Below, piece after piece: positions 1,736-43,953 of a stretch of DNA of 64,000 bases (positions within the stretch are counted from its first letter, which is position 1; each line of letters opens with the position of its first letter). The notes beneath the pieces are model-generated. The model worked only from the letters and a program-made list of their open reading frames with translations, did not search any database and was not told the origin of the DNA. Made by a program: the position numbers and the translations under genes. The stretch is from a virus, in IMG/VR virus record IMGVR_UViG_3300046665_000434, positions 32,001 to 96,000 of that record, one strand, 5' to 3'.

Positions 1736-3268
1736 ATGTTAAACGCTGTTGATCAAACGTTCCATGACCTCTATTCCAACATCCTTGAAAATGGCCACTT
1801 CAAAGGTGACCGTACGGCAGTCGGTACGTTGATGCTGCCGGCACAGATGATGCGATTCGATACCAGTAATGGGCAGATTCCGATCCTGTCGACTCGCTAC
1901 GTGCCTACCAAAGCGTTCCGTCGTGAAATGCTCGATCTCTTCGTTGCCGGTACGTCGAGTATCAAGGAACTGCGCGCCAACAAAGTCGGTATCTGGGACA
2001 GCTGGTTTATCAAAGGTACTGATCGGTACGAAGAAGCCGTATTGCACACGGTAACTGAAATGATGGATCTTGCCAAAGAAAAGGTAGGGTGGGCGGAAGT
2101 AACTAAATTGGTCGACCCGCTGGCAGGTAACGGCGAACAGTCCATCAATCGGCCATACCGAGCAATGAAGATCCGTGAAGCTTTGGCCAAAGAATTCGGC
2201 ATCCCTCTTTATAAATCAACCCCAACACCAATCTCGATCCAGCGCCGCCTGGCCCGTGTATCGAAGAATAACCTAGTAGCGTGGGGAGCTATTGCCGCCA
2301 CAATCGACGGCCTGGGCACTCCTGACGTTGAACACACGGTCATCAAACTGGTGGTGTTCAGCCCTACTGAGAAAGTCTTCGGGGAACTTGACTTCCCTGA
2401 GCGCTGGTTGCCGCAGCTGGAGGCAGTGCTCGATCTGCTGAAGATCCCCAAATACGAACTGGTCGATGCCGACATCGGCAAAGGGTCGTACGGTATCCAG
2501 TGGCGGAAGTGGAAGGACACTCAGGTTGTCCGTGCTGACGAGAACCTGATCGACTGGACCGACCGGGGCTACAAGGTTCTCGGCGTGGTCAACAGCCCTG
2601 ATTTGCCGCGTGGTACTGTGGTCGTTGAACGGGAGATCGATCAGCTGCAAAATATGATCGATCAGCTGAGATACGAGCCCGATGACCGCCGCATCATCGT
2701 CAGTGCGTGGAACCCCGGCCGTATCTGGCAAGCTGCACTGCCTCCTTGCCATCTGTACTTCCAGTGCGTCAGCTGGGAACTCAGTACTCGTGCTGAATTC
2801 GAAGAACAAATCAACAAGGCCAATCTGGGTAAAGACTACCTAGTGGCGTTGATGGAGACGGATTACGATCCAGACTCTGACGAAGAATCGGTAGAGTTTG
2901 CGCGCAAGTTCTGCGTAGAACATCAGCTGCCTATCCGCACGATGACCATGTTCGTTGTCCTGCGTTCCAGCGATACTCCCCTCGGCGCCGTCTTCAATGC
3001 AGCCCAGTACGCGTACCTGCAACACATGATCGCTCATGTTACCAACCATGCTACTTCTGAATTGGTAACGGTAGGTGTAGACTCCCACATCTACACGAAC
3101 CAGATCGAGAAGGTCAAGGAACTCCTTACCCGGGAAACCCCAGAAGGTAGCAATCCTCGAGTCGTCTTCAACCGCAAGGTTACTGACATCGATGATTTCA
3201 AACTGGAGGATATCGACATCGTCGATTACTTCCCTGGTCCGAAGCTGGATATTCCGGTAGCCGTGTGA
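1736..3268 (+). CDS. thyA: thymidylate synthase (ThyA type) with large insertions
   Basis: DRTAVGT, IWDSW, YGIQWR, DDRRIIVSAWNP, ALPPCH, RSSD..LG..FN, DSHIY motifs. Confidence 0.95.
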   Translation: MLNAVDQTFHDLYSNILENGHFKGDRTAVGTLMLPAQMMRFDTSNGQIPILSTRYVPTKAFRREMLDLFVAGTSSIKELRANKVGIWDSWFIKGTDRYEEAVLHTVTEMMDLAKEKVGWAEVTKLVDPLAGNGEQSINRPYRAMKIREALAKEFGIPLYKSTPTPISIQRRLARVSKNNLVAWGAIAATIDGLGTPDVEHTVIKLVVFSPTEKVFGELDFPERWLPQLEAVLDLLKIPKYELVDADIGKGSYGIQWRKWKDTQVVRADENLIDWTDRGYKVLGVVNSPDLPRGTVVVEREIDQLQNMIDQLRYEPDDRRIIVSAWNPGRIWQAALPPCHLYFQCVSWELSTRAEFEEQINKANLGKDYLVALMETDYDPDSDEESVEFARKFCVEHQLPIRTMTMFVVLRSSDTPLGAVFNAAQYAYLQHMIAHVTNHATSELVTVGVDSHIYTNQIEKVKELLTRETPEGSNPRVVFNRKVTDIDDFKLEDIDIVDYFPGPKLDIPVAV

Positions 3269-35665: not shown

Positions 35666-35810
35666 AACTCTATAGCTCAATTGGTAGAGCGCCATCATCT
35701 TTAGGTTGCGGGTTCGATTCCCGCATGATCCGCATGGATCATTAGCTCAATTGGCAGAGCAGAAGATCACGCGATGGAGGTTGCAGGTTCGAGACCTGCT
35801 AGAGTTTCCT
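35666..35810 (+). tRNA. tRNA-Val(CAC)-like gene with 69-nt insert at 33/34 (35699..35767) that is a permuted tRNA, 3' end TCCT
   Basis: AACTCTA/TAGAGTT acceptor, CCATC-AT[insert]CAC-GC-GATGG; insert has a T arm, ATGATCC/GGATCAT acceptor hairpin and D arm. Confidence 0.85.
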
Positions 35811-37036: not shown

Positions 37037-37111
37037 AGTATCGTAGCTCAGAGGTAGAGCGCGGCCCCGATAAGGCTGAGGTCCGTGGTTCGAAACCACG
37101 CGGTACTACCA
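37037..37111 (+). tRNA. tRNA-Ile(GAT) with C33
   Basis: AGTATCG/CGGTACT acceptor; CGGCC-CCGATAA-GGCTG; ACCA. Confidence 0.88.
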
Positions 37112-37334
37112 TGTGTGCTGATGCGCCGATGTCTTCGACTAGCAGCCTTTGAGCGGGTAGGTCGTGAGCATTGGCGCATTGGCGCCTCTTTTCCCCTCCG
37201 CAGGGGGAGACTTGAGACTATAGGGTATCTTGGTATCACGCCTGAGAATGTGTGCTGGCATATCCTGAAACCTCTGCTGGGAGGTGTCTTTCGTATGTAG
37301 GGGTACTCAGCTCCGGCATCCCGCGACTAATTTC

Positions 37335-38042
37335 GGATAGATAGGGAAGTGGCCAAACCCATCGGATTGACTTATTCTATGTATTTAAACATGGGATACG
37401 TCAATGAACTGCATCCACTGTCAGCGAGAATGTGTTAATTGGAATTCTCGGCGTGCACACGAGTGTCGTTGTCCGATGAATCCCAATCGGAAAGTCTTTA
37501 GCCCCAATCTAGGCAACCGACATTCTGAAGCTACTAAGGAGAGATGTAGGGCTGCCGCTCAACAGCAACATCGGCAAGGTTTAAGTGCCGGTTTCCCTAA
37601 CTGGGAAGGTAGAACTCATCGAGAAGAAAGTAAGTTAAGAATATCCCAAGCGCTGATGGGTAACAGGAATGGTAACCATCGAGGGGATCGACAGTCCTAC
37701 TATCGCGGGATCAGAATGGATTCTAGATGGGAGGTTCGTACTGCCGAGTGGTTAGATGACATGGGTTGTTATTGGAGATATTCTCCGAGGGGATTCCAGC
37801 TATCCGACGGGCGACACTACTATCCTGATTTCTTTGTCTATGATGATGAAGGTTGTTTAGATTACCTGATCGAAGTTAAAGGTTATTTTAGAGAAGGTAA
37901 TCGTTTGAAATTCGAAACGTTTAAACGAGAATATCCTGAAATAGAAATACGGTTGTGGGAGAAACCTCAACTTAAAGAATTGGGTATCCTTTAGAGTCCG
38001 GTCTCTATGAGTACGTCGGTTCGAATCCGACTCTGTCCTCCA
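37335..38042 (+). tRNA. type II tRNA (Leu-TAG-like) split in the anticodon loop by a 623-nt endonuclease-encoding insert (about 37369..37991)
   Basis: 5' half GGATAGA-TA-GGG..CCC-A-TCGGA-TT; 3' half TAG-AG-TCCGG, variable arm, GTCGG-TTCGAAT-CCGAC, TCTGTCC-T-CCA. Confidence 0.8.
37404..37994 (+). CDS. putative homing endonuclease (Zn finger, NUMOD3-like motifs, PD-(D/E)XK domain)
   Basis: CxxC..HxxxC, GRTHREESKLRIS, DSRWE...YYPDF...IEVKG; lies inside a tRNA gene. Confidence 0.85.
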   Translation: MNCIHCQRECVNWNSRRAHECRCPMNPNRKVFSPNLGNRHSEATKERCRAAAQQQHRQGLSAGFPNWEGRTHREESKLRISQALMGNRNGNHRGDRQSYYRGIRMDSRWEVRTAEWLDDMGCYWRYSPRGFQLSDGRHYYPDFFVYDDEGCLDYLIEVKGYFREGNRLKFETFKREYPEIEIRLWEKPQLKELGIL

Positions 38043-38060
38043 ATTGATGGAAAGGTAACC

Positions 38061-38489
38061 ATGTCCACTACGCCTCATGTTCGAGTTGGTGTCGCAGTCC
38101 TTATTCGGAGGGCTAACGGTAAGCTTCTCGTTGGTCGTCGTCAAGGAAGTCATGGCGCTGGTACTTGGACTGTCCCTGGTGGACATCTGGAGTTCGGTGA
38201 ATCGATCGAAGACTGTGCTCGACGTGAAGTGGCTGAAGAGACTGGCCTTACTCTGCTGAGCGTATCGGTAGGTTTTGCCGTAACCAATGATATCTTCACC
38301 GAAGTCAACAAGCACTACATCACCGTCTGGGTGGAAGCTACCGTCGGTGAGATTGACGAAGCCGAAAACCTAGAGCCTGAGAAGTGCGATGGTTGGGAAT
38401 GGTATCATGGACCAGAGGTTCCCACACCTCGATTCCTAGGTCTCCAGAACTTGATAGATCAACGTCCAGCCTACTGGAGTTATACTTGA
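38061..38489 (+). CDS. Nudix hydrolase (MutT/NUDT15-like)
   Basis: GGHLEFGESIEDCARREVAEETGL Nudix box; NLEPEKCDGWEW. Confidence 0.92.
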   Translation: MSTTPHVRVGVAVLIRRANGKLLVGRRQGSHGAGTWTVPGGHLEFGESIEDCARREVAEETGLTLLSVSVGFAVTNDIFTEVNKHYITVWVEATVGEIDEAENLEPEKCDGWEWYHGPEVPTPRFLGLQNLIDQRPAYWSYT

Positions 38490-42413: not shown

Positions 42414-42845
42414 ATGTCCATTAGACCGCCAGTGTTGGCGATTGATCGCCAGAAACATTATCGTGATGCATTTACCGATAAAACGATGCGGCTCTATCTG
42501 CCCGTCAACGATCGGGACGAGGTGGTCGAGCACACTAACGGAGAGTGGTTGAAGTGCTGGACCTGGACCGATGTTGAAGGTGAGGTCCCGGTTGCGCTGT
42601 CATCGACAGCGGTGGGTATTTCCCACGCTCTGTTGTGGGCTCCTCGAGAAGATGCCCGTTTGACGCCAGATGGCGTGGTGATCGTCATGGCGCCATTACC
42701 TCGCAGTGTGGCATTCAATAGCCTCAGTAAGCTCGACCAATGGTCACGGCATCTGGAGCGGTCACCTGAATTTGATATCGAGTATCGAGTCGAGACAAAA
42801 CCGATATTCGTCGTTAATGACCCTGAAGAAAATCCACGTAATTAA
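42414..42845 (+). CDS. hypothetical protein
   Basis: 143 aa ORF. Confidence 0.65.
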   Translation: MSIRPPVLAIDRQKHYRDAFTDKTMRLYLPVNDRDEVVEHTNGEWLKCWTWTDVEGEVPVALSSTAVGISHALLWAPREDARLTPDGVVIVMAPLPRSVAFNSLSKLDQWSRHLERSPEFDIEYRVETKPIFVVNDPEENPRN

Positions 42846-42861
42846 TAAGGAGGGTATTCCC

Positions 42862-43953
42862 TTGGCTGAGAAGAAACCTTTGCTGCTGTTCTCCGGTGGT
42901 CTGGACTCCACGTACATCGCGTACAAACACTTCATTAAACAAGAACAGTTCGATATTGTCTATATCGATGGTCGCCAATCTCGTCGTAAAATCGAGGTCG
43001 AGGAGGCTGTTCGTGGTGAGATCCTCAATTGGTTACGTAAGCATACTGAGTTCTCCTGCTATCCTCGCCAACACTCCGCGGCGTCTACCGTGGACTGGTC
43101 TAACGCTACCAGCGCCGGGTTTCGTCAGGCTATGGCTTGGTTTGTATGCGCTCTGGAAGTGGTCGATCCACACGTACACTCTTGCGTGGAAATCGGCTAT
43201 GTTGCAGGTGATCAGATCTCATCCAATCTCGATACCCTGATCGCCGCTTGGAACGCGCTCTGGCCGGTAGCTAAAATCAGCGACAGCGTGGTCCCATTGA
43301 AATTTCCTCTTCGTTATACGACGAAGACTGAAATCATGAACCATATGCCGAAGGATCTGTACGAACTCACTTGGGTGTGTGAGCTTCCTAAGGGTGATGT
43401 TCGTACAGGGTATAAACCTTGTGGTGACTGTGTTCCATGCGATACCCGAGGAATGCTCGAGTACTCCAAAGCTCGTCGGAAAATGACTGCTGAAGAGCAA
43501 AGTCAGCTCGATGCATGGATCGGAAAAACTCTCGATCTGCGCCAACTGGCGAAACCTGAAATCGTGGCAGCGACTGCAAAGGACGCATATAGCGTTACGG
43601 ATAGTGTACAGGAGATCGTCGAGATCGCCAAGAAACTTTCCGAACCTGCCGATGAGAAGCCGGTCACTTACCAACTTGACTGGTCGAAGGTAAAGCAGGG
43701 AGGTACTGATGTCGCCAATGCGTTACAACAGCTTACCGATACAGCGCTGGCGATCAATAAACTCCCTCCTTCGGAAATGGCAAAACTGTTTGTGCTCGAT
43801 GATCACGGCGACCCTCTTCCAGTTGCAGACGGCGCGGTAAAATGGGTAGATCCGATGACATCTGTGCTTAAACGGGATCTTGAGGAACGCGGGTATATGG
43901 ATGCGATCCCATCGGGGCCGGTCAATGACTTACGGAAGGAGGCTGACCTGTAA
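42862..43953 (+). CDS. QueC-like PP-loop ATPase with C-terminal extension
   Basis: LLFSGGLDST PP-loop; TWVC...PCGDCVPC Zn site; TTG start after SD AAGGAGG. Confidence 0.8.
   Translation: MAEKKPLLLFSGGLDSTYIAYKHFIKQEQFDIVYIDGRQSRRKIEVEEAVRGEILNWLRKHTEFSCYPRQHSAASTVDWSNATSAGFRQAMAWFVCALEVVDPHVHSCVEIGYVAGDQISSNLDTLIAAWNALWPVAKISDSVVPLKFPLRYTTKTEIMNHMPKDLYELTWVCELPKGDVRTGYKPCGDCVPCDTRGMLEYSKARRKMTAEEQSQLDAWIGKTLDLRQLAKPEIVAATAKDAYSVTDSVQEIVEIAKKLSEPADEKPVTYQLDWSKVKQGGTDVANALQQLTDTALAINKLPPSEMAKLFVLDDHGDPLPVADGAVKWVDPMTSVLKRDLEERGYMDAIPSGPVNDLRKEADL

Follow-up and report, generated by a model that had tools for sequence, protein, structure and literature searches.

The common view of homing endonuclease genes is that self-splicing introns or inteins allow them to persist where the gene they occupy is essential or useful. 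Those bulge-helix-bulge (BHB) introns of archaea that encode LAGLIDADG endonucleases require both the BHB motif and EndA. For bacteria, we know of no tRNA-splicing endonuclease. Several described systems come close to the locus presented here. In phage T4, according to the summary of PMC2330249 given in PMC2988022, the free-standing GIY-YIG endonuclease gene segB lies in the tRNA array between the tRNA-Arg and tRNA-Ile genes, and its product targets this region and drives its inheritance. Hairpins that sequester the ribosome-binding site restrain the T4 homing endonuclease genes I-TevI, segB and mobE (PMC2988022). The PD-(D/E)XK homing endonuclease I-Ssp6803I is associated with the anticodon-loop region of a cyanobacterial tRNA-fMet, its gene being part of a self-splicing group I intron (PMC3384342). 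Lak megaphages carry unexplained, non-ribozyme inserts in the anticodon loops of their tRNAs, including tRNA-Tyr and a tRNA inside a tRNA, and no endonuclease ORF is described in these tRNA introns (PMC6784885). A limited literature search brought up no account of a phage tRNA whose anticodon loop harbours a bare endonuclease gene.

Such an arrangement is found on the plus strand at positions 37335-38042 of the window, the 64,000-nt stretch of DNA analysed here, which corresponds to bases 32001-96000 of a 154-kb IMG/VR phage record with an estimated completeness of 62%. A type II (long-variable-arm) tRNA gene is interrupted in its anticodon loop, directly 3' of U33, by an endonuclease gene. 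The tRNA is situated in a cluster at 34.5-39.2 kb, for which ARAGORN with default settings reports 6 and Rfam 8 tRNA genes; the split gene is absent from both sets and is found by ARAGORN only when introns are allowed. A preceding sequence-only reading had placed the end of the 5' half (TCGGATT) at 37362-37368 and the beginning of the 3' half (TAG/AG/TCCGG) at 37992-38001, had recognized the TAG at 37992-37994 as the stop codon of the ORF and had put the non-coding part of the insert at about 35 nt. All of these positions proved to be exact; the stop codon occupies tRNA positions 34-36, the place of the anticodon, and the non-coding part measures 35 nt (Table 1).

Table 1. Features of the split tRNA gene and its insert (positions in the window)
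Feature	Positions	Strand	Basis
5' half of the type II tRNA gene, positions 1-33 (acceptor 5' strand, D arm, TCGGA, T32, T33)	37335..37368	+	sequence; ARAGORN with introns allowed; module of L023/L024 starts here
Predicted 16-bp local hairpin (AUUGAC/GUCAAU plus 10-bp stem) over the Shine-Dalgarno-like GGGA and the AU of the start codon	37366..37405	+	fold prediction
Non-coding leader of the insert, 35 nt	37369..37403	+	no difference from L024
Homing-endonuclease-like ORF, 196 aa, stop TAG 37992-37994	37404..37994	+	single copy in the 154-kb record; 74 homologues; dN/dS ~0.03 vs L024
N-terminal Cys/His zinc-finger-like motif (CxxC ... H ... C); C3 and C6 invariant in the family	37410..37478	+	family alignment
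NUMOD3 DNA-binding motif, residues 69-89	37608..37670	+	Pfam PF07460, E 4.6e-6, 26.9 bits vs cut-off 20.4
PD-(D/E)XK nuclease domain, T7 endonuclease I / DUF1064 type, residues ~99-187	37698..37964	+	PHROG 945, 190; family profile vs 1m0d
3' strand of the proposed bracketing stem, within the last ORF codons; unsupported as a structure	37979..37989	+	duplex -9.6 kcal/mol
3' half of the tRNA gene: TAG (34-36), A37, G38, TCCGG, 13-nt variable arm, T arm, acceptor 3' strand, U73, CCA	37992..38042	+	sequence; ARAGORN; identity to L023/L024 ends at CCA

Without the insert the two halves form a complete cloverleaf. The acceptor stem has 7 of 7 pairs (one G-U), the D stem 3 bp with an 11-nt D loop followed by A26, the anticodon stem TCGGA/TCCGG 5 of 5 pairs (one G-U) around the loop TTTAGAG, and the T arm 5 bp; the variable arm of 13 nt folds as CTC-TAT-GAG, and U73 and the CCA end are encoded. 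In shape, a complete type II cloverleaf whose 7-nt loop has U33 and a purine at position 37, it would suit a tRNA-Leu(UAG). The TT at the junction leaves the register ambiguous, as had been pointed out: between 37368 and 37992 the insert comprises 623 nt, as opposed to 621 nt in the register chosen by ARAGORN, and the former gives the more canonical fold. The atypical U73 noted in the same reading is likewise real.

The Leu identity element of bacteria is A73. The discriminator is U73 both in the window and in the relative L024 (related loci and contigs carry L numbers), and we know of no identity set of a bacterial type II tRNA into which U73 would fit. The bodies nearest to that of the split tRNA are those of phage tRNA-Tyr (72% to L027), and its anticodon stem is the same as in the intact tRNA-Tyr of L053. 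Furthermore, the C-terminus of the endonuclease family is normally ...LKELGI(I/L), and relatives vary in where the ORF ends with respect to the 3' strand of the anticodon stem: the ORF of the window stops 2 nt before this strand, that of L009 inside it, and in L047 the strand is overwritten. From the normal C-terminus and the shifting end it follows that the TAG may be simply the stop of the ORF. The dual role that the sequence-only reading had assigned to the TAG is therefore retained only in part: the stop codon does stand at the anticodon place, but it may have been overprinted on the loop there without working as a Leu anticodon. We also looked by eye for a replacement 5' half hidden in the end of the ORF, of the kind with which some relatives regenerate a full tRNA; the best candidate gave 5 of 7 acceptor pairs and no anticodon-stem pairing and was rejected.

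The ORF was recovered with E values of ~4e-12 by PHROG families 945 and 190, which are endonuclease and resolvase families. In Pfam, at E up to 1, only NUMOD3, DUF1064, Phage_endo_I and Uma2 were matched; NUMOD3 exceeds its cut-off, whereas the DUF1064 and Phage_endo_I matches are sub-threshold. Searching 5.8 billion proteins brought up 99 candidates of similar length, 74 of which were relatives with E values up to 0.001. The alignment of the family shows the CxxC...H...C motif, the NUMOD3 region, a GNRNxNHRGDRQ block and invariant WE, PDF and EVKG motifs, with E110, P141-D142, E157 and K159 invariant. Compared with the PDB, the family profile retrieved T7 endonuclease I (1m0d, E 4e-5), the WE, PDF and E-x-K motifs being aligned; neither Pfam (E up to 1) nor this profile search, which gave 1m0d and not 2OST, placed the protein in the I-Ssp6803I family. 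The ORF thus has intact catalytic residues together with a typical DNA-binding module, and the combination of a zinc-finger-like motif, NUMOD3 and a PD-(D/E)XK domain of the endonuclease I type is the build of a homing endonuclease. The homing-type PD-(D/E)XK nuclease that had been read from the letters was borne out in this way, by the NUMOD3 match and the invariant catalytic residues. In our limited literature search the family was not found described as a homing endonuclease.

Closely related copies of the locus are present in L023, L024 and L051, three metagenome contigs from one strain of a distantly related phage. The module of tRNA plus ORF is 97.6% identical in these contigs, the copy of the endonuclease gene ~98%. 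The matching stretch runs from one base ahead of tRNA position 1 to the CCA; outside it the sequences cannot be aligned, and the neighbouring genes are either unrelated or at most 43-50% identical at the protein level. The same gene is accordingly found between unrelated flanks and with a patchy distribution, which indicates that the module is mobile as a unit and has been transferred between phages. This part of the earlier idea of a homing element, the mobility of the tRNA together with the ORF, is supported by the comparison. In L024, at ~1385-1430, a short direct repeat of the first bases of the tRNA (GGATAGAT) stands 21 nt 5' of the module and is preceded by a T-arm-like remnant; both the remnant and the GGATAGAT repeat may be scars of earlier insertions.

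Relative to L024 the ORF shows 9 synonymous changes and one conservative change (R to K), corresponding to a pS of 0.075 and a dN/dS of ~0.03. By these substitutions the ORF is a working gene under strong purifying selection. The last 48 codons and the leader contain no substitution, where ~3.6 synonymous ones are expected. In the exons one D-loop base is changed, the pair at position 43 is G-U in the window and A-U in L024, and the variable loop is TAT in the window and GAAA in L024. None of these differences (3-5 changes) breaks a base pair, for which we roughly estimate a chance of ~6-18%. The divergence of the exons (5 of 85 nt) is about that of the synonymous sites of the ORF (0.075), so the exons show no extra conservation.

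We compared ~26 distinct loci encoding relatives of the endonuclease, almost all of which lie within phage tRNA arrays. Where a 5' tRNA fragment is kept, it ends at U33 in most loci. The commonest layout (n~10; L007, L010, L011, L013, L026, L027, L035, L037, L043 and L049) consists of a type II 5' fragment up to U33, a T-rich leader often containing a TATAAATA-like box, the endonuclease gene and a complete tRNA-Tyr, which begins between 17 nt before and 6 nt after the endonuclease stop. L007, L013, L027 and L049 have a near-identical 5' fragment, with which the D arm and the anticodon stem of the downstream tRNA-Tyr do not agree. The 5' fragment may preserve, as far as the cut site, a target allele that was sensitive, with the complete tRNA-Tyr accompanying the endonuclease gene as a resistant copy. 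In three further loci the endonuclease gene follows directly after a tRNA-Tyr.

Clean splits like that of the window occur in L003, a tRNA-Tyr with the perfect loop CTGTAAA, and in L009, both with 7 of 7 acceptor pairs. The restored loop of L009, CATGTAC, matches an intact odd tRNA-like gene of L010/L029. This gene (~2128-2214), a type II tRNA-like gene with the 8-nt loop CATGTACA to which ARAGORN assigns the four-base anticodon tgta, is located directly after the endonuclease gene and the tRNA-Tyr; it is homologous to the split tRNA of L009, and its D arm is similar to that of the split tRNA in the window. Other splits are eroded. L047 has lost the 3' strand of the anticodon stem and L006 is preserved from the T loop onward only, the acceptor being 7 of 7 in both; L018 retains TAG, AA and the 3' stem and has no T arm, while L012 and L034 retain only the T arm and the acceptor (6 of 7 pairs in L034). 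Decaying halves in relatives, which together with the absence of a spliced or assembled tRNA had been named in the sequence-only reading as a sign against an intron, are seen in these five loci.

In the protein tree the endonuclease of the window belongs to a clade of 7 members, 6 of which are split forms (support 91/88). A single origin of the split architecture was considered and is unsupported, the architecture labels being scattered on the endonuclease tree. The sister endonucleases of L003 and L006 have a common leader and interrupt different tRNAs, so the cassette hops between tRNA genes. In a search for the uninterrupted allele, the exact junction pattern was matched only by chance in a non-tRNA stretch of L046, the exact patterns of the 5' half and of the 3' half gave no match, and no match was obtained in the INPHARED phage collection. 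A degenerate stem pattern led to the above-mentioned intact tRNA-Tyr of L053 with the same anticodon stem, which is not the uninterrupted allele.

Some further features of the related tRNA arrays were observed. L014/L015 contain a tRNA-Pro(TGG) at 175-778 with a 512-nt insert in the anticodon loop, adjoining another endonuclease gene of the family. L003 carries at 194-506 a tRNA-Pro(CGG) with a genuine 238-nt group I intron (93 bits) and, just upstream at 87-170, a weak HDV/CPEB3-like ribozyme match of 27.7 bits, compared with a gathering score of 35. tRNAs with the anticodon CTA, the amber-suppressor type, are present in L007 (3885-3959), L008, L017 (3077-3154) and L053 (5451-5523) and hint at TAG recoding in those phages.

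Whether the insert contains a ribozyme was addressed by running cmscan with all 4227 Rfam families on positions 37100-38300. With E values of up to 10 allowed, no ribozyme or intron was found and only three weak, irrelevant matches were obtained; neither a group I core (P3-P9, RF00028) nor group II domains, hammerhead, twister, HDV, pistol or hatchet were among them. The endonuclease inserts of L003, L006, L009, L024 and L047 likewise gave no Rfam ribozyme or intron at E up to 1. The group I intron in the tRNA-Pro of L003 served as positive control and scored 93.2 bits, whereas the endonuclease insert in the tRNA-Tyr of the same contig gave no score. The rule for the ends of group I introns, a 5' exon ending in U and an intron ending in G, does not describe the insert: for the loop TTTAGAG the insert ends in T or C, and the only register ending in G needs a 5' exon ending in C and yields a Val anticodon. 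The earlier statement that the insert has no room for a group I or II core agrees with this search, in which no such core was detectable.

The splicing route postulated for the insert fared less well. In folds of mini-precursors no BHB motif (3-nt bulges and a 4-bp helix) was formed and the leader folded on itself; the one 4-bp match that could be seen by eye is 6 nt away from the 3' junction. No gene for EndA (PF01974), RtcB, or an Rnl2-type or Rnl1-type ligase was found in the 154-kb, 62%-complete record, the Rnl1 control having matched nowhere. The absence of EndA, RtcB and ligase genes is weak evidence, as the record is only 62% complete. The eroded 3' halves, or complete tRNA-Tyr genes, that relatives carry next to the endonuclease gene are the pattern of a free-standing endonuclease gene and also argue against this route.

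The sequence-only reading had further proposed that a stem bracketing the ORF loops it out and brings the tRNA halves together. Both strands are present (37394-37405 and 37979-37989), but the pairing is at chance level. A duplex at least as good was obtained in 99.7% of shuffles, and all other tested 60-nt windows of the ORF pair better with the leader. Moreover, the 5' strand is taken up by a far stronger local hairpin at 37366-37405, with a predicted stability of -17 kcal/mol (z -5.55; none of 200 shuffles as stable). In its position over the ribosome-binding site and the ATG it resembles the hairpins of T4 segB and I-TevI (PMC2988022). Hairpins just 5' of the ATG are also present in the relatives L003, L006, L007 and L009.

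A connection had also been drawn to Val-like genes in the same cluster, which were thought to share a tolerance for inserts at 33/34 or a splicing route with the split tRNA. This link is weak. The position in the loop is a property of the endonuclease family in many unrelated phages and hence speaks for no special tolerance of this phage, and a splicing route common to the split tRNA and the Val-like genes is not supported. The Val(CAC)-like gene at 35666-35809 harbours a nested, permuted tRNA-like insert (35700-35767) that matches the tRNA-like module of the Y RNA-like YrlA (RF02553) with 41.8 bits (E 1.8e-7), below the gathering score of 69; a homologous element at 864-976 of L009 scores 40.8 bits, which is also below this gathering score. 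Because of this match the Val-like genes may be double-elbow structured RNAs and not intron-bearing tRNAs.

Two other genes of the window were noted. A 510-aa thymidylate synthase ORF at 1736-3268 is matched by a PHROG profile of only 335 positions, and a second family matches residues 401-510 only; these matches point to ~175-200 aa inserted within the ORF, perhaps as an intein or a nested element. A QueC-like gene of 7-deazaguanine synthesis at 42706-43953 suggests modification of the phage DNA.

Taken together, we consider it probable that a free-standing homing endonuclease gene without an intron disrupts this copy of the tRNA. The endonuclease would cut the uninterrupted tRNA allele where the DNA of the anticodon stem-loop forms an inverted repeat, at position 33/34 or close to it, and repair from the phage carrying the gene would then copy the endonuclease gene in, with the tRNA halves acting as homology arms. 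The gene would ride on transcripts of the tRNA operon, and the predicted hairpin over its ribosome-binding site and start codon would restrain translation. As nothing is expected to remove the insert from the RNA, the insert would stay there and this copy of the tRNA is most likely inactivated, a loss that the phage would tolerate given the accessory nature of its tRNAs. In place of an anticodon, the TAG would mainly be the stop of the ORF. Cleavage at this site, homing and the lack of splicing are what we infer from the features of the locus and its relatives. There are observations that speak against a disruption. Both halves are complete, and once the insert is taken out the loop has the canonical 7 nt, including U33 and A37; L003 and L009 are also cleanly split, and several tRNA-like genes of the same phage hold non-ribozyme inserts in their loops. 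Intact halves are, however, to be expected anyway if a young and often-moving element uses its flanks as homology arms.

Two other explanations make use of the intact halves. The halves could serve the transcript of the endonuclease gene by forming a tRNA-like domain, whose ends are trimmed by RNase P and the 3' processing enzymes to yield an end-protected mRNA, in the same layout as in tmRNA and in the laboratory 'tRNA scaffold' RNAs. Acceptor pairing indeed outlasts the loss of the anticodon stem and loop (7 of 7 in L047 and L006, 6 of 7 in L034, T arm and acceptor in L012), and the ORF may overprint loop and stem freely, as with the stop in the 3' stem strand of L009 and at the anticodon in the window. 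We nevertheless regard this as unlikely, given that the commonest 5' fragment has no dedicated 3' partner, the downstream acceptor matching it in 5-7 of 7 positions, and that recent insertion together with use as homology arms explains the survival of the halves equally well. Alternatively, the insert could be a true intron without a ribozyme, with proteins of the host or the phage, an endonuclease recognizing the tRNA body and an RtcB- or Rnl-type ligase, cutting at 33/34 and rejoining the halves to a working tRNA with the anticodon UAG. The complementary and complete halves, the exact restoration of a canonical loop, the structure-preserving exon differences to L024 and the clean splits of L003 and L009 are all compatible with this; Lak megaphages have unexplained tRNA introns (PMC6784885), and RtcB was present in many bacteria in our search control. 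Were it true, the element would be the bacterial-virus counterpart of the archaeal endonuclease-bearing introns, with an anticodon that doubles as the endonuclease stop. Yet no endonuclease or ligase candidate was found in the 62%-complete record, nor a BHB or a supported junction helix at the locus, and the 3' halves of L047, L006 and L018 cannot be rejoined into a tRNA. Most loci of the family keep a separate intact tRNA-Tyr, which would be needless if splicing existed, U73 is odd, and the exons evolve at an approximately neutral rate. Protein-dependent splicing of this tRNA consequently seems improbable to us, and we are just as doubtful about the broader notion that phages or their hosts possess a protein-based, ribozyme-free splicing that excises arbitrary inserts after U33 and is exploited by the endonuclease family.

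Least of all do we expect that the coding sequence conceals an overprinted cryptic ribozyme, either highly diverged and group I-like or self-cleaving. An overlap between group I cores and endonuclease ORFs can occur (PMC3984707), the unchanged last 48 codons and leader could reflect such a constraint, and the insert, if read to the G of the TAG, ends in G like group I introns. Against this stand the Rfam search, with no match at E up to 10 while the control reached 93 bits, and the 35 nt to which the non-coding part is confined. The ends of the insert also do not fit, since with the canonical loop it ends in T or C and the G-ending register entails a Val anticodon and a 5' exon ending in C. 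Finally, free-standing relatives, for which splicing is unnecessary, encode this protein domain as well. The chance that a ribozyme is involved is therefore very small in our opinion.

If the gene is, as we favour, a free-standing endonuclease gene that disrupts its tRNA, a whole family of endonucleases does without intron or intein. The damage would be handled in two ways, either by splitting an accessory tRNA gene, as in the window, or by adjoining a complete and presumably resistant tRNA-Tyr to the 5' remnant. The family would have a defined DNA position, U33/34 of long-arm tRNAs, which would give a concrete reason for phage tRNA arrays being recombination hot spots. The locus is also a clean test case for the question whether protein-only tRNA splicing exists outside archaea and eukaryotes.

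Compared with the systems introduced above, the analogy to the archaeal introns, which had been drawn in the sequence-only reading, extends to an endonuclease gene in an insert without a ribozyme; it was not upheld by the searches, in which the BHB motif was not found at the locus and EndA not in the 62%-complete record, and the related contigs are phages with bacterial-type tRNA arrays. The inserts of the Lak megaphages are alike in their position in the anticodon loop of phage tRNAs and in being no ribozymes, and differ in that the insert described here carries an endonuclease ORF. T7 endonuclease I (PDB 1m0d, 1fzr) has a homologous nuclease domain with the same catalytic motifs, but it is a Holliday-junction resolvase that has no NUMOD3/zinc-finger module and is not mobile. 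With I-Ssp6803I the endonuclease of the window has the PD-(D/E)XK fold class and the anticodon-loop region in common; the proteins belong to different families, that of the window having NUMOD3 and a zinc-finger-like motif, and no ribozyme was found around its gene in the Rfam search. With segB it shares the free-standing gene in a phage tRNA array and a hairpin over the ribosome-binding site, through which the T4 gene is controlled (PMC2988022), whereas the present gene encodes a PD-(D/E)XK enzyme of the endonuclease I type and is placed within an anticodon loop instead of between two tRNA genes. The closest known system in function is T4 SegB, and the closest in target is I-Ssp6803I.
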